A stretch of 64,000 nucleotides of DNA from positions 4,640,001 through 4,704,000 of the forward strand of contig OY761158.1 in NCBI GenBank assembly GCA_963664405.1. Direction: 5' to 3'. The position numbers were made by a program, and so were the translations under genes. The stretch comes from Thermoanaerobaculia bacterium (lineage in GTDB: Bacteria > Acidobacteriota > Thermoanaerobaculia > Multivoradales > Multivoraceae). The notes under the pieces were generated by a model that was not told the DNA's origin, ran no database searches, and saw nothing but the letters and a program-made list of their open reading frames with translations. Of the stretch, positions 6,977 through 59,264 are shown in pieces; positions within the stretch are counted from its first letter, which is position 1, and the number at the start of each line of letters is the position of its first letter.

Positions 6977-8939
6977 GCCGCTGAGGCTCGTATTTACAGC
7001 CCTCGTACTTTGCGCAGCGGCGCAAAGTGCTCTTGGCCAGTACGGCGCCGCCGATGGCGAGTGGCGTGAGTTCGGCGGCGACAAAGGCTCGTCGAAGTAC
7101 TCGCCGCTATCCCAGATCGACGCTTCGAACTTTTCGCAGCTCGAGGTGGCTTGGCGTTGGGAGTCGGCGGACCTCTTGGTCGACGAGAAGTCGCCCTACC
7201 CGCGCCAGAAGTTCCGCTCCACGCCGTTGATGGTGAAGGGTGTCGTCTACGTACCCACCGAGCTCAGTCAGCTGGCGGCCCTCGACGCGGGCACCGGCGA
7301 GCAGCTCTGGCTCTACGATCCCAAGAGTTACGAGCGGGGCAAGCCCGCGCAGGGCAACTACTACACCCGCTCGGTGGTGTATTGGACCGACGGCACCATC
7401 GAGCGCATCATCATGGCGACGATCGGCAGGCAGCTGGTGTCGATCGACGCCGTGACCGGACGCCCCGATCCCACTTTCGGCGAGGGCGGCATCGTCGATC
7501 TGTCGCGAGACTTGGGCCGCGAAGGCATCGCCATCCGCAACATCAGTCACGGAGTGCCGGCCATTGTAGTCCGCGACACCATCGTCCTCGGCTCGAGAGT
7601 CTTCGACCTGCCCCCGCGCGACAACAGCCCGCCAGGGCATATCCGCGCCTACGACGTGCGCACCGGCAAGCTCAAGTGGCGCTTCCACACCATCCCGCAG
7701 GAGGGCGAGGATTTCGTCGACACCTGGGGGAACGAGTCGTGGAGGACGGCGGGGAACACCAATGCCTGGGCACCGCTCAGCGCCGACGAGGAGCTCGGCT
7801 ATGTCTACGTCGGCACCTCGACCCCGACTAACGATTTCTACGGCGGCCACCGTCACGGCGACAACGTCTACGCCGAGAGCCTCATTTGCATTGATGTAGC
7901 GACCGGCAAACGCGTCTGGCACTTTCAGACCGTGCACCATGGGATCTGGGACTACGACATCGCCTCGGCGCCCAACCTGATCGATGTGGTTGTCGACGGC
8001 CGACTGGTCAAGGCCGTGGCGCAGGTGTCGAAGACGGCTTTTACCTATGTCTTCGACCGCGTCACCGGGGAGCCGCTGTGGCCGATCGAAGAGCGGCCGG
8101 TGAACAACAACTCGCCGGTTCCGGGCGAGCGACTCTCGCCGACTCAGCCCTTTCCGACCAAGCCGCCGGCCTTCGACCGCCAGGGCTTGGTTGTCGACGA
8201 TCTCATCGACCTCACTCCCGAGCTGCGCGAGGAGGCTCTCGAAATTGCGAAGGGCTATGTCATGGGACCGATGTTCCCGCCTGTGATCGTCAGCGGCGAG
8301 GGGGGCAAGGACGCGGCGATCGTTCTGCCCAGCGCCGGCGGCGGAGCGAACCACGCGGGTGCCTCGATCGACCCCGCGACCGGGATTCTCTACGTCCCGT
8401 CATCGACGAGAGTGTCTGCAATGGCGGTGGTGAAGCCAGACCCGGCGCGATCCGATTGGCGATATGTCCTCGATTCTTTTCGCGGCGTCGAAGGACCCCA
8501 GGGGCTGCCGCTCGTCAAGCCTCCCTACGGGCGCATCACCGCGATCGATCTTGGGACCGGCCAGCACGCCTGGAAGATTCCGTTCGGCGACGGCCCGACC
8601 CGACACCCGGCGATCAAACATCTCGACCTCGGCCCCCTGGGTAGCTCGCGGGTCGCCGATGAGGGCGGTCTTCTGGTGACAAGGACTGTGCTGATCGCCT
8701 ACATTCACAACTGGGACGACCTCGACAAAGAGCTTCTCGGCGGCACCATCCTCCATGCCTACGACAAGGCCACCGGCCAGCTTCTGGCGGAGCTCGAGGT
8801 CGACGCAACTCTGCACAGTGCGCCGATGACCTATATGCACCAGGGTCGTCAGTTCATCGTCATCGCGGGTGGCGACGAGAAGGGGAGACAGAGTCCGGCG
8901 GAGAAGGCGGAGCTGCTGGCGTTCGCCCTGCCTCGCTGA
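6840..8939 (+). CDS. Secreted PQQ-dependent dehydrogenase, glucose/quinate DH-like (true start uncertain, probably near 6906-6981)
   Basis: KYSPLSQID, PGHIRAYDVRTGKLKWRFHTIP, WHFQTVHHGIWDYD, PIEERPV, PTQPFPTKP, PMTY. Confidence 0.9.
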   Translation: MSSTISTKTPTSTRISRPSRPTVRSSTSSQIACASAGKAPCQRGSEPLRLVFTALVLCAAAQSALGQYGAADGEWREFGGDKGSSKYSPLSQIDASNFSQLEVAWRWESADLLVDEKSPYPRQKFRSTPLMVKGVVYVPTELSQLAALDAGTGEQLWLYDPKSYERGKPAQGNYYTRSVVYWTDGTIERIIMATIGRQLVSIDAVTGRPDPTFGEGGIVDLSRDLGREGIAIRNISHGVPAIVVRDTIVLGSRVFDLPPRDNSPPGHIRAYDVRTGKLKWRFHTIPQEGEDFVDTWGNESWRTAGNTNAWAPLSADEELGYVYVGTSTPTNDFYGGHRHGDNVYAESLICIDVATGKRVWHFQTVHHGIWDYDIASAPNLIDVVVDGRLVKAVAQVSKTAFTYVFDRVTGEPLWPIEERPVNNNSPVPGERLSPTQPFPTKPPAFDRQGLVVDDLIDLTPELREEALEIAKGYVMGPMFPPVIVSGEGGKDAAIVLPSAGGGANHAGASIDPATGILYVPSSTRVSAMAVVKPDPARSDWRYVLDSFRGVEGPQGLPLVKPPYGRITAIDLGTGQHAWKIPFGDGPTRHPAIKHLDLGPLGSSRVADEGGLLVTRTVLIAYIHNWDDLDKELLGGTILHAYDKATGQLLAELEVDATLHSAPMTYMHQGRQFIVIAGGDEKGRQSPAEKAELLAFALPR

Positions 8940-9109
8940 GGAAGTGGACCTAAGGGTCGGCGCGGAAATAAGTTTCCAGTATCTGGGGTGACCATACCAC
9001 TGCCCCCTTCTTCAGCCACCGCATAATCCTCCGGTACGCGCCTTGTTTGCAAGGTTTAGAGCTAGCATAGCCCTGCCCGCATTTGGTATAGTTTCCCCTG
9101 TCACCTCTT

Positions 9110-9892
9110 TTGGAAGGGGAACTATACCAAATGGTACGAGCCGAAGATCGTGATGCAACAGTGCGCGAGCTCTTGATGAGCGAACAGATGGCCACCATGG
9201 ATGAGCTCAAGGACGCCATGGGAACCCGAGCCACCATGACGGTCTACCGTTCGCTGTCTCGATTGGGCTATTTGGCCAGCTACTCGGATCGAGGGCGGTT
9301 CTATACCTTGAACGAGATTCCCGATTTCGACGATCTGGGTTTGTGGTCGTGCGGTTCGGCGAGGTTCAGTCGGCATGGCAGCCTCCTCGAAACTGCGGTG
9401 GCTGCCGTGGACCGGTCCGCTGCCGGCTATACGGCTTCTGAACTCGAGCTCCTGCTGCAGGTCGAGGTCAAGCACGCGATGTTGCACCTCGTTCGTCGCA
9501 AGAGAATCGTACGATCCAGAGTTGGGAAGAGGTTCGTATACTTGTGCTCGGAAACAGGGCGCCGTCGTCAGCAGAAGCTGATGCGCAACGAACGGCAGGC
9601 TCTCCAGGATGTAGCTGCCAGCCTCGTTCCAGAAGTGCTCCCCGAGGAGCTCAGGGCTGCCATCGTTTTATTCTTCAGCCTGCTAGACGAACGCCAGCGG
9701 CGGCTCTTCGCTGGCCTGGAAGCGACCAAGCTCGGGCATGGCGGCGACCGGAAGATCGCCGATCTTCTGGACCTGGACCCTCATACAGTCGCAAAAGGAC
9801 GTCGCGAGCTCTTCGGCGGCTCCGTGGAGCGCGGAAGAGTTCGAAGAGCAGGCGGTGGCAACCAACGAGTGGAAAAAAAACGCCCGAGATAG
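9110..9892 (+). CDS. ISAzo13 transposase OrfA (N-terminal, HTH region)
   Basis: LDERQRRLFAGLEA..GHGG..IA..TVAKGRREL..RVRRAGGG; ends just after an A8 run. Confidence 0.8.
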   Translation: MEGELYQMVRAEDRDATVRELLMSEQMATMDELKDAMGTRATMTVYRSLSRLGYLASYSDRGRFYTLNEIPDFDDLGLWSCGSARFSRHGSLLETAVAAVDRSAAGYTASELELLLQVEVKHAMLHLVRRKRIVRSRVGKRFVYLCSETGRRRQQKLMRNERQALQDVAASLVPEVLPEELRAAIVLFFSLLDERQRRLFAGLEATKLGHGGDRKIADLLDLDPHTVAKGRRELFGGSVERGRVRRAGGGNQRVEKKRPR

Positions 9893-10938
9893 TCGATGGA
9901 ATCCATTCCATACTCGAGGCCGATATAGCTGGTGATCCCATGTCATCAAAAAGATGGACGCACGAGACCGCTGCAAAGGTGGCCCAATGCCTTGCCGAAC
10001 GCCTTGACATCATCGTATCGGCTACGGTGGTGCGTCGATTGCTCGCAGACCTGAACTATTCCCTCAAGAGCAATAGGAAATGTCTGTCTTCGGGGAACTC
10101 CCCAGATCGTGATGCACAGTTCAAGGCCATCAAGCGACTGCGCGAGGATTTCACAAGCGCTGGCGACCCGATCATCAGCGTCGATACGAAGAAGAAGGAG
10201 CTGATCGGTCGGTTCAAGAACCAGGGACAGACATGGTGCCGCGAGGCCAAGCGGGTCAAGGATCACGACTTCCGGTCCGAAGCTCTCGCCATCGCCTCCC
10301 CCTATGGGATCTACGATCTTCAGAGGAACTTCGGCGTTCTCGTCCTCGGACAGTCGTCGGACACGCCGGAGTTCGCTGTCAACAGCATCGCGACCTGGTG
10401 GCTCAAATACGGTCGATCTCACTATCCGGCGTCTCAGCGTCTCCTCATTCTTGCCGACAGCGGCGCAAGCAACGGCGCACGGCTTCGAGCCTGGAAGAAG
10501 TACCTCCAGGAGAAGCTCGTAGACAAGTGCGGCCTCATCATCACCGTCGCCCACTATCCAACTGGCACCAGTAAATGGAATCCCATCGAGCACAGGATGT
10601 TCAGCGAGATCAGCAAGAACTGGGCCGGAGTTCCTCTCGAGAGTTTCGAGATCCTCGTCAACCTCGTCCGCAACACGACGACATCCACCGGACTGCGCGT
10701 CGAGCCGTGCCGTGATCAACGCCAATACCAGAAAGGAGTCAGGGTATCGGACAAGGAAATGCTGCAGCTCGCGGTGGCCAGGAGCGACTTCCTAGGAAAG
10801 TGGAACTACACCCTCTCGCCGAGACCGCGAACCGAGCAGGAAGAGCTTGCCCCACAGCCTGGGCTCAGCTCACCACCACCTCCAATGCAGCGACCGCCCT
10901 GTGGCGCCTCGGCCTCACACGCTCCGGCGATAATGTGA
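9871..10938 (+). CDS. ISAzo13 transposase OrfB (DDE domain), reached by probable -1 frameshift
   Basis: DRDAQF, PIISVDTKKKELIG, DHDF, PYGIYD, LLILADSGASN, HYPTGTSKWNPIEHRMFS, WNYT. Confidence 0.88.
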   Translation, partial: GKKTPEIVDGIHSILEADIAGDPMSSKRWTHETAAKVAQCLAERLDIIVSATVVRRLLADLNYSLKSNRKCLSSGNSPDRDAQFKAIKRLREDFTSAGDPIISVDTKKKELIGRFKNQGQTWCREAKRVKDHDFRSEALAIASPYGIYDLQRNFGVLVLGQSSDTPEFAVNSIATWWLKYGRSHYPASQRLLILADSGASNGARLRAWKKYLQEKLVDKCGLIITVAHYPTGTSKWNPIEHRMFSEISKNWAGVPLESFEILVNLVRNTTTSTGLRVEPCRDQRQYQKGVRVSDKEMLQLAVARSDFLGKWNYTLSPRPRTEQEELAPQPGLSSPPPPMQRPPCGASASHAPAIM

Positions 10939-50239: not shown

Positions 50240-50433
50240 GAATGCGCCGTCCTCGGCGCCATGTTCCGCATCCGTAGGAAATGATAGCGATCATTTCCGT
50301 AGAATGCGCCGTCCTCGGCGCCATGTCGATGTAGCCGTAGGAAGTGATACCCATCACTCCCGTAGAATGCGCCGTCCTCGGCGCCATGTCGATGTGACTC
50401 AAGGCAGTGATATTCATCACTGCATTGAGTCAC
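50240..50433. repeat. Three tandem REP-like two-hairpin units (62-63 bp period)
   Basis: GAATGCGCCGTCCTCGGCGCCATGT at 50240, 50302 and 50365, each followed by a TGAT-N4-ATCA hairpin. Confidence 0.9.
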
Positions 50434-50767: not shown

Positions 50768-51739
50768 ATGATCTGCCGCAGCTGCTGGCTAATGATTGCG
50801 CTGGTCATGACGTTCTTCCTGCTGTGCGCTTCGCCGGGGCTAGCTCAGGGCGAGCGTCCAGCGGCGAGCGACTACCGCACCGCCTGGGGCGCTCCCGATC
50901 TTCAAGGGGTGTGGGACTTTCGCACCATCACTCCCCTCGAGCGCCCGCCCGAGCTTGCCGGCAAGGAGTTCTTGACTGCCAAGGAAGCGGCCGAGTTTGA
51001 AAAGGAGACGGTCGCCGTTCGTCACAAGGATGAGCGCGGCGGAGGCGCCGAAGCGGATGTCAGGCGCGCCTACAACCACTTCTGGTGGGACTACGGCACC
51101 AACGCGGTCGAGACCCGCCGCACTTCATTGATCGTCGATCCCCCCGACGGGCAGATCCCCGCTCTGACCGAAGCGGGAGAAGAGCGTTCCGCCGAGATGC
51201 GAGAGAGGCGTGTACGAGCTGACAATCCGGAAGAAATAGGGACTGCGGCGCGCTGCGTCGTCGGCTTCAATGCCGGGCCGCCGATGAACCCGGCCGCCTA
51301 CAACAACAATGTGCGCATTCTCCAAACCGAAGACCACGTCGTGATCCACAACGAAATGGTGCACGATGCCCGCGTCGTGCCCCTCGATGGCCGCCCCGTT
51401 CTACCGGAGGACTACCGGCAGTTGAGCGGCGAATCGCGGGGTCACTGGGAAGGAAATACTCTCGTCGTAGAGACAGGAGGCTTCACCGACAGGACTTCTT
51501 TTCGCGGCTCAGGTCCATCCATGCATCTGACCGAGCGCTTCACCCGCACCGCCGAAGATGGTCTGCTCTATGAATACACCATCGACGACTCGGAGTCGTT
51601 CACCCGCCCCTGGAGCGTCGAAGTGCCGATGCGCCGACAGACAGAGCCGATGTACGAGTATGCCTGCCACGAGAGCAACTACGGCATGCGCGGCATCCTC
51701 GCCGGAGCTCGCTTCCTCGAAAAGCAATCAGCCCCGTAG
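50768..51739 (+). CDS. Secreted hypothetical protein (paralogue of 19611-20735)
   Basis: RTAWGAPDLQGVW, TPLERP, YNNNVRILQT, GESRGHWEGNTLVVET, YEYACHESNY. Confidence 0.85.
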   Translation: MICRSCWLMIALVMTFFLLCASPGLAQGERPAASDYRTAWGAPDLQGVWDFRTITPLERPPELAGKEFLTAKEAAEFEKETVAVRHKDERGGGAEADVRRAYNHFWWDYGTNAVETRRTSLIVDPPDGQIPALTEAGEERSAEMRERRVRADNPEEIGTAARCVVGFNAGPPMNPAAYNNNVRILQTEDHVVIHNEMVHDARVVPLDGRPVLPEDYRQLSGESRGHWEGNTLVVETGGFTDRTSFRGSGPSMHLTERFTRTAEDGLLYEYTIDDSESFTRPWSVEVPMRRQTEPMYEYACHESNYGMRGILAGARFLEKQSAP

Positions 51740-51790: not shown

Positions 51791-52759
51791 CTACGACAAC
51801 GACTGCGAGCGCACCTGTACGAGGCCGCCCTCGATCGTGGGCGCGAAGTCCCTGGGCAGGTCCGCCTGCCTCACCGAAGACTCCTCGATCGCTGGGTAGT
51901 CTTCTCCGACCGGGCAGACCAGCTCGCAGCGAGCGCACCCGGTGTAGGCCCCTTGCCGCATCACGGTGAGGTGGTAGAAGAGCTGCTGCGTCTCTGTGCG
52001 CCGAAGCTTTCGCGCGGCCTCTTCGCCGGAGGCAGAGTCGAAAATGTGATCGAGGTGCTTCACCATCCGTTGGGGACCGTAGGGCTGACAGGTGCCGGTG
52101 CAGGCCTCGGTGTCGAGAGCGCGGATGTCTCGAAGGCTGGCCCCCTCTGGCGCTCGAGTGGGTATGGCCTGCGCAGGACATACTGCCGCACAGCGACCAC
52201 ATCCTTCGAGGCCCGGGCAGAGCTCGTCTTGCATCGCCTCGTCGGCTTCGAGCTCGAGGTCGGTGATGATGCCGGCGAGAAAGAGCCGCGGTCCATACTG
52301 AGGAGTGAGGAGCATCTGATTGAGGCCGAGGGTGCCGAGCCCGCTCTGAACGGCACCCTGTCTCAGCAGGAGCGAGCCTTGGCCCGCCGGAGTGGCGTAG
52401 CCCAGCGGCTGGCGTCGTAGATCGGGAAGCACGGCGGAGAGGAGGGCCGCCATGCAGTCGCGCTCTTCGAGCCAGTAGGCGAGGCTGGCTGTTGCCTCTT
52501 CCAGGTGACGTGCGGTGCGGCCCATGGCGTATTGCCGAAGAGCTTCATCCGGGGAACAGGCTACGCCGGTTGGGTAGCGCCGAACGAGAACCAGAAGCGT
52601 GCGGTGAAATCTCGAGAGCTGCGAAGGTTTGTCGTACTCCGGCGCCACCGTTTCCAGGGCGTGCCAGTCGCAGACGCCGACCAGATCGATACCCAGCGCC
52701 GCCGCCTGTTCGCGAACGGCTGCCTCGGTCGGCAACGGAAGCTCTTCTGCGGTGCTCAC
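51791..52759 (-). CDS. QueG/reductive dehalogenase-superfamily Fe-S protein, paralogue E
   Basis: GIDLVG, SGLGTLGLNQMLLTPQYGPRLFLAGIITDL, Cx5Cx2Cx3CP, C-x54-Cx2Cx3CP. Confidence 0.85.
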   Translation of the reverse strand: MSTAEELPLPTEAAVREQAAALGIDLVGVCDWHALETVAPEYDKPSQLSRFHRTLLVLVRRYPTGVACSPDEALRQYAMGRTARHLEEATASLAYWLEERDCMAALLSAVLPDLRRQPLGYATPAGQGSLLLRQGAVQSGLGTLGLNQMLLTPQYGPRLFLAGIITDLELEADEAMQDELCPGLEGCGRCAAVCPAQAIPTRAPEGASLRDIRALDTEACTGTCQPYGPQRMVKHLDHIFDSASGEEAARKLRRTETQQLFYHLTVMRQGAYTGCARCELVCPVGEDYPAIEESSVRQADLPRDFAPTIEGGLVQVRSQSLS

Positions 52760-53748
52760 GAGGCTCCAAGCTGGACCAGATGGTCGAAGTCACGGTCGCG
52801 AATGTACTCCGGATCGCGGTCGGGCGGGGGCCCGAGGAAGGCTACTTCGTGCTTCTCGGGTGTGCGGGTGTGCTTGACGCGCCCCGGTGGCAGGTCCATG
52901 CGCCGATAGGGCACGCGCATGATCTTGCGTATGTCTTTCTTTCCCACCGGGCAGACATACATGCACTCGAAGCACGCCGCGAAAGCGCCGCGTTTCGAAT
53001 TGGTAGCGATGTAGAAATCGCTCCAGAATCGATTCTCGAGCACTTCGGAGGTGTCGAGGGGTCGCTCGGACTCCAGCAGCTTGCGCAGCACGGTGTAGAG
53101 AGAGCGAATGCTGATCCGCATTGCCGCCTGGGAGCAGGCTCGCTGATCGAGGTCGCGATAGTCGTTGACGTGCTCCCCGCGCGCCGCTTCTCGGGGAATC
53201 GCGTCCGGCGGGCAGAGGACCGCGCAGCGGCCACACTCGAGCCCCGGACACAGAGGATCCTCCAGCGGCGAGTCCGGCTCGATCTCGAGGTCGGTCAACA
53301 GAGCTCCCAGGTAGACCCGGGATCCATGGTCGGGGGTGAGGAAGTTGAGGTTGAGGCCGACGTGGCCGAGACCGGCGAACTCGGCGGTCCACTTGAGATC
53401 GAGGAGTCCGGCTCCGGTCCACTTCAAATCCATATCCGCGTACTCTGGCGACACCGGCAACGCTGCATGACCGCGCTCTTCGAGCCACTCGGCGATGTCG
53501 AAGGCGACGTCGTCCGCCATGTCGAGGGCGAGATGAGAGTTGGTGGATTGCGTCGATACGTCTTCCACCCCCAAAGCACCGGTGAGCAGATGCTTGGTGA
53601 CCACGATGATGCTCTTCATTCCCGCCACCAGGAAGTCAGGCTTCTGTTCGTTCGGGACCCGCTCGGAATAGGCCTCGACGCTCGCGACACCCACCGAATC
53701 CGCTCCCTGCGCCAAGCCGAAACGGACCATCTCTTGCTTGAGGCTCAT
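52756..53748 (-). CDS. QueG/reductive dehalogenase-superfamily Fe-S protein, paralogue D
   Basis: GADSVGVA, KWTAEFAGLGHVGLNLNFLTPDHGSRVYLGALLTDL, Cx4Cx2Cx3CP, C-x53-Cx2Cx3CP. Confidence 0.87.
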   Translation of the reverse strand: MSLKQEMVRFGLAQGADSVGVASVEAYSERVPNEQKPDFLVAGMKSIIVVTKHLLTGALGVEDVSTQSTNSHLALDMADDVAFDIAEWLEERGHAALPVSPEYADMDLKWTGAGLLDLKWTAEFAGLGHVGLNLNFLTPDHGSRVYLGALLTDLEIEPDSPLEDPLCPGLECGRCAVLCPPDAIPREAARGEHVNDYRDLDQRACSQAAMRISIRSLYTVLRKLLESERPLDTSEVLENRFWSDFYIATNSKRGAFAACFECMYVCPVGKKDIRKIMRVPYRRMDLPPGRVKHTRTPEKHEVAFLGPPPDRDPEYIRDRDFDHLVQLGAS

Positions 53749-54737
53749 TTTCGCGCCTCACGATCCCAGGTCGTGTTGCGGCGTACCTGGGGGCCCAAGC
53801 TCTCGACTTCGACCCAGCCGTCGGCGATCTTGCGCGGCAACGTCTCCGGCAGGTCGGAGCGGCGGTGGTGGGTGTCGCGGAGTGCTTCCCAATCTTCTCC
53901 GACCGGACAAACCTGGACGCACTCGCTGCACCCGGTGAAGGCCGCCTCCTTCATCATCGCCATCTCCGTCCATATTTCGCCGCTCTTGCGACTGCGCATG
54001 CGGCCCCACATCTCCTTTCCTTCGGTCGACTCGAAGATGTGTACCAGGTGATCCTCGAAGTTTTGGAAGCCGAAGGGCTGGCAGGATCGCGCGCAGGCGG
54101 CGCTGTCGAGACCGCGAACGGACTCAGTCGGCGCCCCAGCCATGGCGCGGCGGGGAATGGCGTCTTCAGGACAGATCGCTGCGCAGCGGCCGCACTCCTC
54201 GAGCCCGAGGCAGATCTCCTGATCCAGAACGGGGTCGGGCTCGACCTCGAGCGTCGTCAATACTCCGGAGAGGTGAACCCGAGGCCCGAAGCTCGGGGTC
54301 AGCACCATGAGATTGAGTCCCCAGGTGCCGAGCCCGGCGGCAACGGCGGCGTGGCGTAGCAGGGTCGAGCCCTGGCCGGCGGGGGTCAGATCGAGTGGCC
54401 CTCGGCGGGCAAAGTCGAGAGCGGTGCTCGGGGTCGGGAGAGCGAGATATTGCCTCTCCTCGAGCCATCGCGCCACCGACTCCGCGGCGTGATCCAGAAT
54501 TCGTAGATTGCGCCCACCGGCCAGCTGCTTCGAAGGCAGGTGGCGGGCCATCGTCACCCCGCGGAGGGTCTTCTTGGCGAAGACGATGAAGGTTTTCGCG
54601 TCGGCAGCAAGGGTGGAGGGGCGGTGATCCTCGGCGACGGTCTCCTCGAGGCCCGCGACCGCGGCGAAGCGCGCGAGGTCGACTCCCTGTGCGAGCACCA
54701 GCTCTCTGAGCTCTTCTTTAGCGATCGGTGGTGGCAC
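53745..54737 (-). CDS. QueG/reductive dehalogenase-superfamily Fe-S protein, paralogue C
   Basis: RHAAVAAGLGTWGLNLMVLTPSFGPRVHLSGVLTTL, Cx5Cx2Cx3CP, C-x54-Cx2Cx3CP. Confidence 0.87.
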   Translation of the reverse strand: MPPPIAKEELRELVLAQGVDLARFAAVAGLEETVAEDHRPSTLAADAKTFIVFAKKTLRGVTMARHLPSKQLAGGRNLRILDHAAESVARWLEERQYLALPTPSTALDFARRGPLDLTPAGQGSTLLRHAAVAAGLGTWGLNLMVLTPSFGPRVHLSGVLTTLEVEPDPVLDQEICLGLEECGRCAAICPEDAIPRRAMAGAPTESVRGLDSAACARSCQPFGFQNFEDHLVHIFESTEGKEMWGRMRSRKSGEIWTEMAMMKEAAFTGCSECVQVCPVGEDWEALRDTHHRRSDLPETLPRKIADGWVEVESLGPQVRRNTTWDREARK

Positions 54738-54739
54738 GG

Positions 54740-55057
54740 CTACTTGAGCTCGTCGCGGTATTTGAAGACGTAGGAGATACCGTGGCGGGCGAAGGCGCGG
54801 CAGGCCTTGTCCTTGAACTCGATAGCCTTCTCCCACTCTTCCAAGTCGTAAGTGTCGCGCTCTGCGACCACTCGGATCTCCCGCACCGTTCGCTCGTCGA
54901 GTCCGAGCTTCTCGGCGATCTCGCGGTCCGAATGGCCTCGTCTGCGTTTTTCCGGGGGCAGGTGCTCCTGGAAATTCACCTGGACCGAGTCCGACAGCGC
55001 GATGACCTCGTCCTTGTACTTCTTGTAAATCTCTGGTTCGACGAAAAAAAAGCTCAC
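54740..55057 (-). CDS. Small protein with a central HTH-like motif
   Basis: GHSDREIAEKLGLDERTVREIR; fills the gap in the operon with 10-bp and 2-bp spacers. Confidence 0.8.
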   Translation of the reverse strand: MSFFFVEPEIYKKYKDEVIALSDSVQVNFQEHLPPEKRRRGHSDREIAEKLGLDERTVREIRVVAERDTYDLEEWEKAIEFKDKACRAFARHGISYVFKYRDELK

Positions 55058-55067
55058 GATTTTCGTC

Positions 55068-55934
55068 CTATCTCAAAGTTCGTTCTTCAGCGCCGACGGG
55101 GCACACCCGCATGCACTCGTAGCACTGAGCCTGACTCTGTGACGCATAGGTCATGGACCAAAGGGTGCGGGTGAAGAAGCTCGAATAGAGGATCATCTTC
55201 CGCTTCTCGGGGTCCTCCTCGTCGAGGGCGGCTTCGAGACCCTTCTGGAAGCCGGGCACCCAGTGAGTGTGGACACGGGTAGCGCAGCGGGCGGTATTGT
55301 AGCGGCGGTTGGCGAAACGGCCCTCGACGATGTCGCCGCCGAGGCAGCCGCCGTCGTCGATGGGACAGACCTTCATGCACGGCGTCGTGCCTTCGGCCTC
55401 CCACATGTCGAGGCATGCCGGGGCCGGGCAAGCCGGCTCGGCGCGGCCGTCGATCGGCAGAGGGCAGGTAGTGACGATGGCGGAGTAGTAGAGCATGCCG
55501 TGCTTTGGGTGGAGGAGGGGGCCGGCGAGACTCGGAGAGGCGCAGCCCGCCAGCTCGGCGGCTAGAGCGACACTGAGAAATGGCTGGTTCCCCTTGTTGA
55601 CGCCGGGAGGGACGAAGAGGGCGTAGTAGCCGAAGCTCGCCTCGATGAATTTCGCGGCCTTCAACCCCAGTGAGTTGATCCGGTCGCTGGTCCCCATCGT
55701 TTCCTGATGTTCGTGCTTCGGGCTCACCCAGTCTCCGGCTCGCGGTGGGCTACCACCGACCACGAAGACGCGCTTGGCTCCCGGCAGCAGGTCCTGTGGG
55801 CGAAAGCCCTCGGGGGCGGCGGCGAAGTCGTCGACGTCGGCAACGCCGCTGACCAGGGCGCCTCCGCGCGCGGAGAACTCGGTGAGCTGTTGCTTGGCCA
55901 GCTCGAAGTCCAGCTCTGCCTCGGGCTCGCTCAT
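55068..55934 (-). CDS. QueG/reductive dehalogenase-superfamily Fe-S protein, paralogue B
   Basis: RPQDLLPGAKRV, AAELAG..LHPKHG..SAIVTT, Cx4Cx11Cx3CP, C-x53-Cx2Cx3CP. Confidence 0.8.
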   Translation of the reverse strand: MSEPEAELDFELAKQQLTEFSARGGALVSGVADVDDFAAAPEGFRPQDLLPGAKRVFVVGGSPPRAGDWVSPKHEHQETMGTSDRINSLGLKAAKFIEASFGYYALFVPPGVNKGNQPFLSVALAAELAGCASPSLAGPLLHPKHGMLYYSAIVTTCPLPIDGRAEPACPAPACLDMWEAEGTTPCMKVCPIDDGGCLGGDIVEGRFANRRYNTARCATRVHTHWVPGFQKGLEAALDEEDPEKRKMILYSSFFTRTLWSMTYASQSQAQCYECMRVCPVGAEERTLR

Positions 55935-56824
55935 TTCAGTCTCTTGTGGTTCTGGCCTACCGGACATACCCGCATGCACTCGAAGCACTGTGCGACGCTC
56001 TCCTTGTAGAAGCTGAGCGACGAGAGCGACTGAGAGAAGAAGTCGGAATAGATCATCGATTTGCGGCGGTCCTGGTCTTCTTCGGCGACGATGTCGACGA
56101 GACTCTTCTGCACGCTTCCGACTCCGAAATTCATCGATCTCGAGTGACAGCGCTCGCGGTTGTAGGACGAGTAAGAGATGCGCCCGTCCTCGTCGATCTC
56201 GCCTTCGAGGCACCCGCCCTCATCTTTGGGGCAGGAGGCCAGACAGGGCGTTGTGCCGAGCTTTTCGTACATTTGTACGCAACTGGGAGACGGGCATGCG
56301 TCCTTCTGTAGCACGTGGTTGGGCTCGAGCGGCAAGGTCGTGACCAGGGCGGCGTAGTAGAGGAGACCGTATTCCGGGTGGAGAATGATATTCGCCGCCA
56401 GCGAGCGGGTTCCAAGTCCCGCCAGCACCGCCGCCAGCATCATGCTCATCGGCGGATGATGTCCTGCGGTTGGCAGAGAGGGCGCCTGCAGCGCGTTGTA
56501 GCCGTACTCCCTCTCGATGAAGTCGCACATCACATGCACTGCGACGTTCTCTCGGAAGTCGTAGCCGGTGATCTCCATCACCCGATGGTCCGGAGAGCGC
56601 CAGGCCGCGGCGGTCGGGCCCTGGTTGCCGGCGACCACCACGCTCTGGGCTCCCGGCAGGATGTCTTCGGGTCGATGGCCTTCGGGGACATACTCGTTGA
56701 AGGCGTTGGCGGCAGCGACTCCGACGATTAGCGCCCCAGCCTTCTTGCCCGCTTCACAAACGGGTGCGGACGGTAGCAGGCCTTCTCGGCCGGTGTCTTC
56801 GCTGGCTGAGGCTTCTATTTCCAT
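55931..56824 (-). CDS. QueG/reductive dehalogenase-superfamily Fe-S protein, paralogue A
   Basis: GALIVGVA, RPEDILPGAQSVVV, AAVLAGLGT..NIILHPEYG..AALVTTLPLEP, Cx4Cx11Cx3CP, C-x53-Cx2Cx3CP. Confidence 0.83.
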   Translation of the reverse strand: MEIEASASEDTGREGLLPSAPVCEAGKKAGALIVGVAAANAFNEYVPEGHRPEDILPGAQSVVVAGNQGPTAAAWRSPDHRVMEITGYDFRENVAVHVMCDFIEREYGYNALQAPSLPTAGHHPPMSMMLAAVLAGLGTRSLAANIILHPEYGLLYYAALVTTLPLEPNHVLQKDACPSPSCVQMYEKLGTTPCLASCPKDEGGCLEGEIDEDGRISYSSYNRERCHSRSMNFGVGSVQKSLVDIVAEEDQDRRKSMIYSDFFSQSLSSLSFYKESVAQCFECMRVCPVGQNHKRLK

Positions 56825-56861
56825 CGGCGCACGGGAAGGATAACGCAAGATCGGAGCAAGG

Positions 56862-56881
56862 AATAGACCGACCTGTCTATT
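56862..56881. promoter_or_regulatory. Putative TetR operator 1
   Basis: AATAGAC-CGACCT-GTCTATT inverted repeat. Confidence 0.72.
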
Positions 56882-56906
56882 GGCCAGGTTCCCGGCCCCT
56901 TGAGCC

Positions 56907-56922
56907 AAGACCGATCGGTCTT
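56907..56922. promoter_or_regulatory. Putative TetR operator 2
   Basis: Perfect palindrome AAGACCGATCGGTCTT, just before a TACAAT -10-like hexamer (56924-56929, plus strand). Confidence 0.75.
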
Positions 56923-57059
56923 ATACAATGACGCGGAGTTGGCTCGAACCGGGTGGGGCAGCTTTCCGGACGCGCCAGATCGTACAAGGGTCCTTCCAGT
57001 GGGTTTGCTCCTTCGAAGGATTCCTATCAAATCAATCAGTGATCGAGGAAGAGTAGAAC

Positions 57060-57635
57060 GTGCAGGAAAGAAGCGCAGCACTCCGTGAGCACATCCTCGA
57101 TGTCGCGTCGGACCTCTTCTATCAGCATGGGGTTCGCAACGTCGGCATCGATCGAATCATCACCGAATCGGGCATCGCCAGGATGACCCTCTATAACCAC
57201 TTCAAGTCGAAGGACCTGCTGATTCAGGAGTATCTCCTGCGCTCCTCGCGCCAATGGGTCGCTTGGTATTCCGCCAAGATCCAGGAAGCTTCCCAAGACC
57301 CTGGCGAGAGGATTCTCGCGGCTTTCGATGTTCTCGACGGGTGGTTTCGGTCCAGCAAATTTCGGGGTTGCTCGGTCGCGAACGCCTCGGTCGAGCTGGC
57401 CGATGAGTGCCATCCGGTTGCCGAGGTCAAGAAGGAGTATCACGCCAACCTTCGGGGGCTGTTTCGCGGCCTCGTCGAAGAGGCTGGCGCTGGGGATCCG
57501 GAAGAGATAGCCGAGGAGCTCTTTGTGCTACTGCGCGGAGCCATGCTTTCGGCGCATCTCGACGGTCCTGAGGGCGTGGCGGCACGAAGTCGCCGTTCGG
57601 CGGAGCGTCTGCTTTCGGCCCACATTCCCAACTGA
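57060..57635 (+). CDS. TetR/AcrR-family regulator (NemR/YxaF-like)
   Basis: ILDVASDLFYQHG..GIDRII..GIARMTLYNHFKSKDLL, FRGCSVANASVE. Confidence 0.93.
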   Translation: MQERSAALREHILDVASDLFYQHGVRNVGIDRIITESGIARMTLYNHFKSKDLLIQEYLLRSSRQWVAWYSAKIQEASQDPGERILAAFDVLDGWFRSSKFRGCSVANASVELADECHPVAEVKKEYHANLRGLFRGLVEEAGAGDPEEIAEELFVLLRGAMLSAHLDGPEGVAARSRRSAERLLSAHIPN

Positions 57636-57668: not shown

Positions 57669-59264
57669 ATGAGACGGAGAGACTTCCTCACCGGGTCTGC
57701 CGGGGTTGCGGCCAGCTTGATGATGGAGGGTTTGTCGCAGCCGGCTGAAGGCCAGGTTGGGGACTGGGATGCTGGTGAAGTGGCCCACATCCTTCCAAGT
57801 GTCAGCCACGATCGCTTCTTGATCAAAGTCTCCTTTCGTACACCGGCTTCCGGCATTCCTTTGCTTCGCCTCGGCAGGCGTCTTGTGCCTGGCAAGCTGA
57901 GCGACCGAGTGGGTCGATTTTGGGCCTTCTATGTAGCGGGCTTGGAGCCGATGACGAGTTACAGGCTCGAGCTCCTCAGCGACGAGGAGCGGCCGCTGTG
58001 CCAGCCCTGGTTCCTCGGCACCTTTCCTCCTCCCGATTCTCTGCCGGATCGCTTCAGGCTGTTGATTTTTACCTGTGCCGGTGGGCACGAGGATGCGCGG
58101 CTCGCGGACGGCACACAGGTCTTTCTATCTTTGGACGATCGGCGACGTTTGCTGCGACGTGCCCTCTCCTTTCAGCCGCAGGCTGCCATGGCTGTCGGCG
58201 ATCACGTCTACTGGGACATGCGCGCGGGCCGCTCTGCGAGCATGGTTCGCGAGAGCGAGCTGGCGAAAGAGCTCGATGCTTCGGCATTCCGCCGCGAGCT
58301 CCCGGTGCTCGGAAGCGAGAACGAGGGCCGTCTGGTTGGTGTGGTCGATCCCCAGATCGCGGATCTTTACGGCAGCATGCTACGCAGCGTGCCTTCGTAT
58401 TTCGTTCTCGACGATCACGACTATTTCGAAAACGACCACGCCGACGACGAGATCGTCACCTTCCCGCCGGATCCCTTTATGCTGCAGTTGGCACAGGCGA
58501 CCCAGCGTCTCTACTACCCCGAGCTGCTGCCCGATTCGCGGCGGCCACTCAATCTTGGGGGAGGGCGTGCATTCGACAGCATGCCGGGTCTGTCAGAGTC
58601 TTTTGGCACGCTGCGCTTCGGGCGCCTGGTCGAAGGCTTGATCTACGACTGCCGCCGCTTCCTCTCTCTCAAGGGGCCAAGCGCTGGATTCGTTCCGGAG
58701 GCCACCGAATCTTGGCTACTTTCTCGTATGGCGGCGGCGGAATCACGCCACGTGGTGAACATCCCTTCTACTCCGGTGGGGTGGAGCGCCGGAAAGTGGG
58801 CCGAGTGGTATCCCGACCTGCTCCAGCCCGATGGCCGTCTCGGGACCTCGGTCCGGAAGCCTTATTGGCAAGAGGGGTGGCTGGCGCAGCACGATCGGCT
58901 CCTGCGTGGGGCGGCGGCGATGGCCGACACACCACTCTTTGTCAGCGGTGACCTTCACGCTCTCGGCGTAGGACGGATTCTGGGCTCCGCCACCCTCGAT
59001 CTCTCCCACAATCCGGTCGTCTCCGTACTCTCGGGCCCCCTGGGTACCGGACCTCCCGGCTGGCCCTCGGCCTCCCGTGGCACCGGCCCTCAGGTGCCGA
59101 CCGGGCTCGACCTGGAGGAGGATCTTGCTCCGGTTGAAAAAAACGGATTCACCCTGCTCGACTTCGGGCTCGAAAGTGTGACGATTCGCATGTTCCAGTG
59201 GAAGCTGGGTGAAGACCCGTCGCTGATCGACGATCTGGAGCCGTTTCTGACCTTGGAGGTTTGA
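57669..59264 (+). CDS. Tat-exported PhoD-like metallophosphoesterase
   Basis: MRRRDFL Tat motif; GDHVYWD, DDHDYFEND, YDCRR, SGDLH. Confidence 0.75.
   Translation: MRRRDFLTGSAGVAASLMMEGLSQPAEGQVGDWDAGEVAHILPSVSHDRFLIKVSFRTPASGIPLLRLGRRLVPGKLSDRVGRFWAFYVAGLEPMTSYRLELLSDEERPLCQPWFLGTFPPPDSLPDRFRLLIFTCAGGHEDARLADGTQVFLSLDDRRRLLRRALSFQPQAAMAVGDHVYWDMRAGRSASMVRESELAKELDASAFRRELPVLGSENEGRLVGVVDPQIADLYGSMLRSVPSYFVLDDHDYFENDHADDEIVTFPPDPFMLQLAQATQRLYYPELLPDSRRPLNLGGGRAFDSMPGLSESFGTLRFGRLVEGLIYDCRRFLSLKGPSAGFVPEATESWLLSRMAAAESRHVVNIPSTPVGWSAGKWAEWYPDLLQPDGRLGTSVRKPYWQEGWLAQHDRLLRGAAAMADTPLFVSGDLHALGVGRILGSATLDLSHNPVVSVLSGPLGTGPPGWPSASRGTGPQVPTGLDLEEDLAPVEKNGFTLLDFGLESVTIRMFQWKLGEDPSLIDDLEPFLTLEV

Follow-up and report, generated by a model that had tools for sequence, protein, structure and literature searches.

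Two separately conserved cassettes of short QueG/RdhA-like paralogues, juxtaposed in a Thermoanaerobaculia genome, as candidate class III cobalamin/[4Fe-4S] reductases

The 64,000-nucleotide (nt) stretch of Thermoanaerobaculia bacterium DNA analyzed here (contig OY761158.1, positions 4,640,001 to 4,704,000; hereafter the window) contains six abutting, co-oriented genes on the minus strand at 51791-56824, in the order A, B, S, C, D, E (Table 1). Five of them encode short iron-sulfur proteins resembling epoxyqueuosine reductase (QueG) and reductive dehalogenases (RdhA), and an initial annotation proposed that all six products form one multi-subunit reductase. We find instead that the block is composed of two separately conserved cassettes, A-B-S and C-D-E, which are juxtaposed in this genome. 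The finding is more general than the initial annotation supposed, as the five proteins are part of a widespread, unnamed branch of QueG/RdhA relatives. On balance, we favor the interpretation that the two cassettes would represent an uncharacterized branch of class III cobalamin/[4Fe-4S] reductases that act as assemblies of different paralogues.

After refinement of the start codons, the six genes were indeed found to be joined as first described, by ATGA overlaps (A/B and C/D), a GTGA overlap (D/E), or gaps of 10 nt (B-S) and 2 nt (S-C). The paralogy of A, B, C, D, and E is far beyond chance, with BLASTP E-values of 8e-78 for A-B, 8e-84 for C-E, 5e-53 for C-D, 2e-41 for D-E, 2e-19 for A-D, and 7e-4 for B-E. 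The proteins form two groups, A/B and C/D/E, with about 25% identity between groups. Eight cysteine columns are invariant across all five paralogues, and a ninth invariant cysteine is present in the orthologues of A and of B. The initial annotation had assigned these eight cysteines and a common core of the form AG(L)G..P..G....T to all five; the cysteines and the core are present in each, with B deviating from the core in that it reads AGCA and lacks the Asn. Its description of the proteins as free of export and anchoring features was also borne out by motif search, hydropathy, and gene map: no twin-arginine (Tat) motif is present in the first 40 residues of A-E, no transmembrane-like stretch was found in A-E with 19-residue windows (Kyte-Doolittle maximum 1.63, located within the conserved core), and the abutting six-gene block leaves no space for an RdhB-like gene.

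To survey the A-B-S cassette, one genome per species (185,579 species) was scanned with protein A, giving 154 confirmed loci; the analysis used the best 80. These 80 loci come from Acidobacteriota (40), Pseudomonadota (27), Planctomycetota (3), Actinomycetota (3), Tectimicrobiota (3), Chloroflexota (2), Rokuibacteriota (1), and Myxococcota (1), and are often close kin, so that the counts overstate their independence. An unpublished genome (G432, locus L050) is represented by single rows in the counts and in the alignments; the conclusions are independent of it. B follows A in all 80 loci, and the complete A-B-S order is kept in 78 loci spanning 8 phyla. The two exceptions are L039, where an open reading frame (ORF) is inserted between A and B and the contig ends inside B, and L053, which has no S within 10 kb. 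Relative to the window proteins, A is 57-83% identical (79 loci, 8 phyla), B 53-76%, and S 44-77%. With starts assigned heuristically, the A/B junction is a 4-nt overlap in 41/72 loci, and the median B-S spacing is 15 nt. The cassette is not represented as a family in Pfam or NCBIfam. Its distribution is patchy: a phylum survey, in which five candidates were scored per genome, returned matches in 12/401 genomes. The insertion in L039 (Thermoanaerobaculia, 7954-10485) is an 844-amino-acid (aa) stop-to-stop frame that appears kinase-like by eye, without a family search, and this locus holds the sole interrupted A-B pair among the 80. In four other loci (L051, L064, L080, and L083) gene B is split into two ORFs, for which frameshifts, assembly errors, or decaying copies are all possible.

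The small protein S is a conserved third member of A-B-S and not a spacer, being encoded directly 3' of B in 78/80 loci. Its relationships are less clear than its position. The top Pfam match was the helix-turn-helix (HTH) family HTH_23 at 20.1 bits, under the cut-off of 24.6. Searches of the PDB returned no relative, the best match being an XRE-like protein at E 0.25 that covers only residues 24-59 of S. In a protein atlas, the S homologue P0217 has unnamed clusters as neighbors, with named HTH clusters at no more than 0.77. Some S orthologues carry a basic tail.

The order C-D-E was observed in L001, L003, L005, L057, L101-L104, L107, and the metagenome contig L122, and is kept in Bryobacterales, other Acidobacteriota, and Myxococcota; a locus from Planctomycetota (L105) has C then D only. 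D is 72-75% identical to its orthologues, and E has 381 database relatives at E<=1e-3 that are named only "ferredoxin," "epoxyqueuosine reductase," or hypothetical. A second D-type paralogue, a 354-aa ORF, is present in the source genome (G000:C1:1124241-1126509; L014 7242-9510). This copy lies directly downstream of a gene for a 425-aa protein that passes the curated reductive dehalogenase (RDH) model (176 bits against 160), and thus also pairs a short QueG-like protein with another superfamily member.

The two cassettes are usually found apart. Of 41 related genomes searched, 12 had matches, including six with A-B only and three with A-B and C-D-E at separate loci; S follows B in 9/9 of these relatives. 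A tree of the loci fetched from these relatives gave clean orthologue groups for A, B, C, D, and E; among the 10 genomes placed in it (G012 was left out), none has a C/D/E-type protein without an A/B-type protein. When the 80 A-B-S genomes were searched with a C/D/E profile at a threshold of E<=1e-40, a C-D-E-type triple (>350 bits) was found in 20, fragments in one more, and more distant tandem pairs of a third kind, termed F-G (170-200 bits), in 14, with nothing detected in 45. A-B-S is therefore unaccompanied by C-D-E in 59 or 60 of the 80 genomes, one being ambiguous. In 19 of the 20 surveyed genomes with both cassettes they are at separate loci, the window's genome being counted apart. 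The exception is L057, where C-D-E precedes A-B-S; only there and in the window, where A-B-S precedes C-D-E, are the cassettes adjacent. The metagenome loci L123-L125 provide a third linkage of the two modules, in which a C-D-C/E-type array is followed by an A-like gene with 35-37% identity to A. The six-gene order, whose conservation the initial annotation proposed to test, is not kept as one unit.

Several lines of evidence place A-E in the QueG/RdhA superfamily, as initially predicted. By Pfam, A-E show 4Fe-4S motifs only. A profile of the five paralogues matched QueG (5d08, 2.8e-17), PceA (8q4h, 2.2e-11), and NpRdhA (4ras, 2e-6) in the PDB, and a C/D/E profile matched QueG at 1.2e-15. HHalign against a profile of 15 QueG sequences from the same order gave probabilities of 98.6% for C/D/E (E 6e-16), 94.3% for B (E 1e-7), and 82.2% for A (E 1e-5). 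The HHalign match spans QueG residues 5-255 only, which correspond to the cofactor-binding core and the ferredoxin part. All five proteins have the arrangement that marks the superfamily, a nitroreductase-like core followed by a ferredoxin module with eight cysteines for two [4Fe-4S] clusters, and the cysteine columns agree with the eight-cysteine pattern described for QueG (PMC5175355). The C-terminal HEAT-like tRNA-binding domain of QueG is absent from A-E by both MAFFT and HHalign. A and B stop about 10 residues past the last cysteine motif, and C/D/E have tails of 35-60 residues unrelated to QueG.

By curated cut-offs, A-E are neither QueG nor RdhA, because their scores fall far under those cut-offs and because the genome encodes its own QueG. 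Against the QueG equivalog model (NCBIfam TIGR00276, cut-off 200 bits), A scored 12.8, C 38.1, D 50.3, and E 48.6 bits, with no match for B. The RDH model (TIGR02486, cut-off 160.35 bits) gave 35.1 for A, 35.2 for C, 31.3 for D, and 43.1 for E, again with none for B. The true QueG, encoded elsewhere in the same genome, scored 330 bits and is present as one copy in 30/31 genomes of the order, source genome included.

A tree of 74 rows (quick search, QueG as outgroup) with support from the Shimodaira-Hasegawa-like approximate likelihood ratio test (SH-aLRT) resolved A, B, C, D, and E each as a clean orthologue group in several phyla, which argues against the lineage-specific tandem expansion that the initial annotation had set against its proposal. 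F and G, members of a sister clade, likewise form separate clades. Support was 100 for A|B, 99 for D, 97 for C|E, and 99 for F|G; the C clade is sister to the E clade, the A and B subtrees mirror one another, and all 71 short-type rows group at 94%, two RdhA-like proteins aside. The five-paralogue profile searched against 1.84 billion representatives recovered 6172 at E<=1e-3, 1382 at 1e-10, and 167 at 1e-30, and the source names of relatives were only "hypothetical protein," "ferredoxin," or an automatic "epoxyqueuosine reductase."

Natural fusions in the sister clade bear on how these proteins may assemble. F-G tandem gene pairs occur in 14/80 A-B-S genomes, and F precedes G in the six fetched loci (L096-L100 and L106, from Alphaproteobacteria and Marinacidobacterales). 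Two proteins, P0361 (670 aa) and P0362 (678 aa), combine an N-terminal F-type with a C-terminal G-type module, each half with full motifs, so that the order of modules in the fusion is that of the gene pair. P0362 belongs to an 8-member cluster found on 19 contigs from NCBI, JGI, ENA, Logan, and Tara. Among the best 150 representatives, 32 are at least 600 aa long with 2-5 matched stretches, and five of these were examined. Three-module proteins of 725-836 aa also occur, and in P0383 and P0386 the middle of the three modules lacks the cysteines. The sister clade thereby offers a Rosetta-stone case. Within the superfamily, PceA forms a homodimer whose interface is mimicked in NpRdhA by a vestigial duplicated core (PMC10463259). 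Given the F-G fusions and this dimer and pseudo-dimer precedent in RdhA, it is plausible that A/B and C/D/E form heteromers. A 600-aa, A-B-like protein (P0366) was considered as an A-B fusion and rejected, as its middle resembles frameshifted sequence.

In the arrangement we favor, each member would be a short (~290-330 aa) cytoplasmic protein made up of a cofactor core and a ferredoxin module, without a tRNA-binding domain, Tat signal, or reductase domain. A would pair with B, S serving either as their third subunit or as a regulator specific to them, and a second assembly would consist of C, D, and E. The interface would be of the dimer type found in the PceA homodimer and mimicked in NpRdhA by its duplicated core. 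The two clusters would relay electrons to a corrinoid, which would carry out a reductive elimination on a small molecule with loss of halide or of an epoxide or hydroxyl oxygen; the proposed substrate is a carboxylic acid in the form of a coenzyme A (CoA) thioester. From homology we infer that A-E may bind cobalamin, and reductive dehalogenation or deoxygenation is our guess at the reaction.

The substrate proposal comes from the genes that surround A-B-S, which were counted in the 76 loci with A and S boundaries. A FadD-type acyl-CoA ligase (502 bits, cut-off 476) lies within 5 kb of A-B-S in 19 of these loci from 4 phyla, and in 11 it is the immediate same-strand neighbor; another ligase, of PaaK-like type, occurs within 5 kb in eight. 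A crotonase-family gene is within 5 kb in 25 loci, and a luciferase-like oxidoreductase is adjacent in 22, mostly in Acidobacteriota. In the Woeseiaceae locus L070, seven co-directional genes encode an iron-dependent alcohol dehydrogenase, a 326-aa RdhA-like protein, a crotonase, a CoA ligase, A, B, and S. The metagenome locus L123 (4615-12935) has a co-directional series of CoA ligase, TetR, C-like, D-like, C/E-like, and A-like (35% to A) genes and a second CoA ligase, and L124 carries the same paralogue array. In Multivorans-group loci, a crotonase-family gene and its neighbor belong to clusters with BoxC- and BoxB-scoring members: the one BoxC member scored, from L025 (Candidatus Multivorans), reached 865 bits, and the one BoxB member scored, from L018 (Holophagales), reached 831 bits. 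A broader pattern, BoxC next to A-B-S in five phyla, was rejected because the single-linkage cluster behind it combined true BoxC with short crotonases of the ordinary kind, which make up its members elsewhere. Context within the window is limited to one hint, the divergent TetR gene. Together these neighbors suggest that the substrates may possibly be CoA thioesters, a link we treat as a lead because many of the loci are close kin and the neighbor families are common.

PaaABCE can deoxygenate its epoxide product, and we know of no case in which reductive deoxygenation or dehalogenation with the class III cofactor set acts on CoA esters. A fuller proposal, which we put forward as tentative, is that these proteins constitute a third functional class III branch of obligate heteromers, A/B with HTH-like S as a dedicated third subunit, C/D/E, and F/G with its fused forms, spread by gene transfer across at least 8 phyla of mostly aerobic marine or symbiotic bacteria, and that they would reductively remove an epoxide oxygen or halogen from acyl- or aryl-CoA thioesters.

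A number of observations weigh against the interpretation of A-E as cobalamin-dependent reductases working as heteromers. The strictly conserved DYH motif, a requirement in QueG (PMC4646009), is kept in none of A-E by MAFFT and HHalign: at this site A reads G-Y-D-F-R, in which Asp is kept, Tyr is replaced by Phe, and His by Arg, and B, C, D, and E have unrelated residues. Of the catalytic Asp134 and lower-face Arg141 of QueG (B. subtilis numbering; PMC5175355), the Arg141 position is only partially conserved: C and E have Arg, D has Lys, and the residue is non-basic in A (Met in both alignments) and B (Ala by MAFFT, Val by HHalign). The Asp134 equivalent varies with the alignment, being Gly or a nearby invariant Asp in C/D/E and Gly or His in A; in B, where its placement is also alignment-dependent, it is Asp in most orthologues and Asn in the window's protein. 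A Tyr above the corrin is common to QueG, PceA, and NpRdhA (PMC4646009). In this loop, where the alignment is unreliable, HHalign places the invariant Phe90 of A at the Tyr site with an invariant Tyr88 two residues earlier, E orthologues have a conserved Tyr a few residues upstream, and B, C, and D have none nearby. On these residues, the active sites of A-E differ from that of QueG. Class III enzymes are described as lacking any cobalamin-binding sequence motif (PMC4646009), so cobalamin binding by A-E is unreadable from sequence.

The heteromer proposal meets further difficulties. Each of the five paralogues retains all eight cysteines, which leaves no obvious candidate for a vestigial partner, and the representatives examined included no A-B fusion. 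The five paralogues do not form one obligate complex, since A-B-S mostly occurs without C-D-E. Regarding the substrate, CoA ligases and crotonases are abundant families and the neighbors vary among loci, and the kinship of the loci noted above also applies. With respect to cofactor supply, CobS and CobD/CbiB had no match in the 97%-complete, single-contig source genome (G000). The same genome has four B12-binding domains above cut-off, QueG, and one cobalamin riboswitch (C1:3091089-3091285). The absence of CobS and CobD together with these B12-related features suggests that the host probably imports corrinoids, and we regard the supply picture as neutral for the cobalamin claim.

Four other explanations were considered. 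It is rather unlikely, in our estimation, that the five proteins act independently as monomers, on related substrates or in a single catabolic route, and are kept together for co-regulation only, with S as the pathway's transcription factor. QueG is a monomer (PMC4646009), the full cysteine set would allow each of the five to be catalytic alone, an HTH-like stretch is present in S, and the two cassettes occur independently of each other. Against this, co-regulation does not usually give pairing as strict as that of A and B, an order kept across phyla as in C-D-E, or trees that mirror each other like those of A and B, and the sister F-G pair exists as one fused polypeptide in gene order; a protein with the conservation of S over 8 phyla, encoded a median of 15 nt 3' of B, would also be unusual for a regulator.

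We consider it improbable that A-B-S is a non-corrinoid iron-sulfur module for electron transfer or activation, serving C-D-E here or the 326-aa RdhA-like protein in Woeseiaceae. A and B are indeed the furthest from QueG, with PDB searches of each alone giving E 0.38 for A, itself a point against a cobalamin-dependent role, and E 0.045 for B. They also have an unusual first cysteine motif with an 11-residue insert in addition to the ninth cysteine, and A-B-S stands beside other superfamily members in three arrangements. Against this, 45/80 A-B-S genomes lack a C/D/E- or F/G-type partner at E<=1e-40, and A and B retain, besides the ferredoxin part, the entire N-terminal region of the core that lines up with the cobalamin-binding part of QueG.

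A role in nucleic acid modification like that of QueG, with S as an adaptor replacing the HEAT-like tRNA-binding domain, appears very improbable. QueG being the closest solved relative, the HTH-like stretch and occasional basic tail of S, and the short proteins without the QueG C-terminal domain would all fit such a role. The DYH motif is absent, however, the patchy accessory distribution (12/401 genomes) differs from the near-universal true QueG, and the neighbors are CoA ligases, crotonases, and oxidoreductases rather than tRNA or queuosine genes. Finally, a single six-subunit enzyme, to which the tight junctions, the lack of a terminator-like site in the block, and the reversed adjacency in L057 lend some support, is very unlikely because the cassettes are usually apart (19/20 surveyed genomes with both) and A-B-S is alone in most genomes, leaving from the cytoplasmic hetero-oligomer initially envisaged the plausible part, heteromers of paralogues.

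The TetR-family gene divergent from gene A is, by its position, a candidate regulator of the cluster. A consensus scan of the intergenic region between them found promoter-like and terminator-like sites to be no commoner than in shuffled sequences, and the same type of scan found no minus-strand terminator-like site inside the six-gene block. Rfam gave no match in the window, and thus no cobalamin riboswitch near the cluster. A search of sequencing runs with the stretch listed six DNA-type runs that contain it and no RNA run. In three metatranscriptome runs and one DNA run, the RNA-library contigs within the cluster were limited to 234 nt in C (53900-54133) and 161 nt in B (55743-55903); these are not evidence of transcription or of an operon, because DNA can occur in such libraries.

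Table 1. Genes of the six-gene block and the divergent regulator region, in window coordinates.
Feature	Position	Strand	Description
Gene A	55931-56824	-	297 aa; short QueG/RdhA-like; opens the A-B-S cassette; from ORF list and start refinement
Gene B	55068-55934	-	288 aa; paralogue of A (45% identity); ATGA overlap with A
Gene S	54740-55057	-	105 aa; central helix-turn-helix-like stretch; third A-B-S member
Gene C	53745-54737	-	330 aa; short QueG-like; opens the C-D-E cassette; GTG start
Gene D	52756-53748	-	330 aa; short QueG-like; middle of C-D-E; best conserved of C/D/E
Gene E	51791-52759	-	322 aa; short QueG-like; closes the C-D-E cassette
TetR-family gene	57060-57635	+	Divergent from gene A; Pfam TetR_N 46.6 bits, TetR_C_13 32 bits
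Intergenic region, TetR gene to gene A	56825-57059	.	Presumed from its position to be a divergent promoter region

The block is flanked by the TetR regulator on one side and by a secreted protein of no known family on the other. At 50768-51739 (+) the window encodes a 323-aa protein with a signal-peptide-like N-terminus, and at 57669-59264 (+) a 531-aa protein with a twin-arginine-like N-terminus; neither has a Pfam or NCBIfam match. An intergenic tandem repeat with a 63-bp unit (2.5-2.9 copies, 82-88% matches) is found at 50240-50421, between a glyoxalase-family gene and a DUF3303 gene.

To our knowledge, class III enzymes have just two established activities, the reduction of organohalides and that of epoxyqueuosine. 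Further class III families were predicted by those who solved the QueG structure, with the expectation that they would be hard to find because they lack a cobalamin motif (PMC4646009). A-B-S is a strong candidate for such a family, based on the 57-83% identity of A over 8 phyla, the lack of a Pfam or NCBIfam family, the fixed three-gene architecture, and the fused sister clades. No paper on the A-E family was found in a literature search whose coverage was without most subscription journals, and within that coverage the initial statement that no characterized system has this layout still stands. If confirmed, the cassettes would introduce heteromers of catalytic-type paralogues as a new quaternary design and, probably, a new class of substrate. 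A B12-dependent trait of sponge symbionts, Entotheonella, Woeseiaceae, and other bacteria abundant in the environment would likewise be new, with bearing on community B12 demand and on the turnover of halogenated or oxygenated natural products.

Of the solved structures, those of QueG (B. subtilis 5d08, S. thermophilus 5d6s) are closest to A-E by sequence. Like QueG, A-E have an N-terminal core followed by an eight-cysteine module for two [4Fe-4S] clusters, are predicted to be cytoplasmic, and have no Tat signal, and at the position of Arg141, below the corrin, C and E also have Arg and D has Lys. They score far below 200 bits and, unlike QueG as described (PMC4646009), lack both the DYH motif and the HEAT-like domain. 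QueG is a single-copy monomer, whereas A-E occur as fixed paralogue sets, with the A-B pair accompanied by the extra protein S.

The catabolic, oxygen-tolerant dehalogenases NpRdhA, BhbA, and JtRdhA resemble A-E in being cytoplasmic, without RdhB, and from aerobic marine bacteria, and their core pairs with a duplicated core as a pseudo-dimer (PMC10463259). These enzymes are single chains of at least 700 aa with a vestigial, cofactor-free duplicate and often a fused reductase. The partners described here are instead separate genes, with two- and three-module fusions in relatives, and score 31-43 bits (B none) against the RDH cut-off of 160. The respiratory RdhA enzymes such as PceA, which are accompanied by RdhB, belong to the same superfamily (PceA at 2.2e-11), and PceA is a dimer (PMC10463259, PMC4646009). 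A-E differ from them in having no Tat leader, anchor gene, or N-terminal region of RdhA length, and where PceA forms a homodimer, the assemblies proposed here would be heteromers of paralogues.

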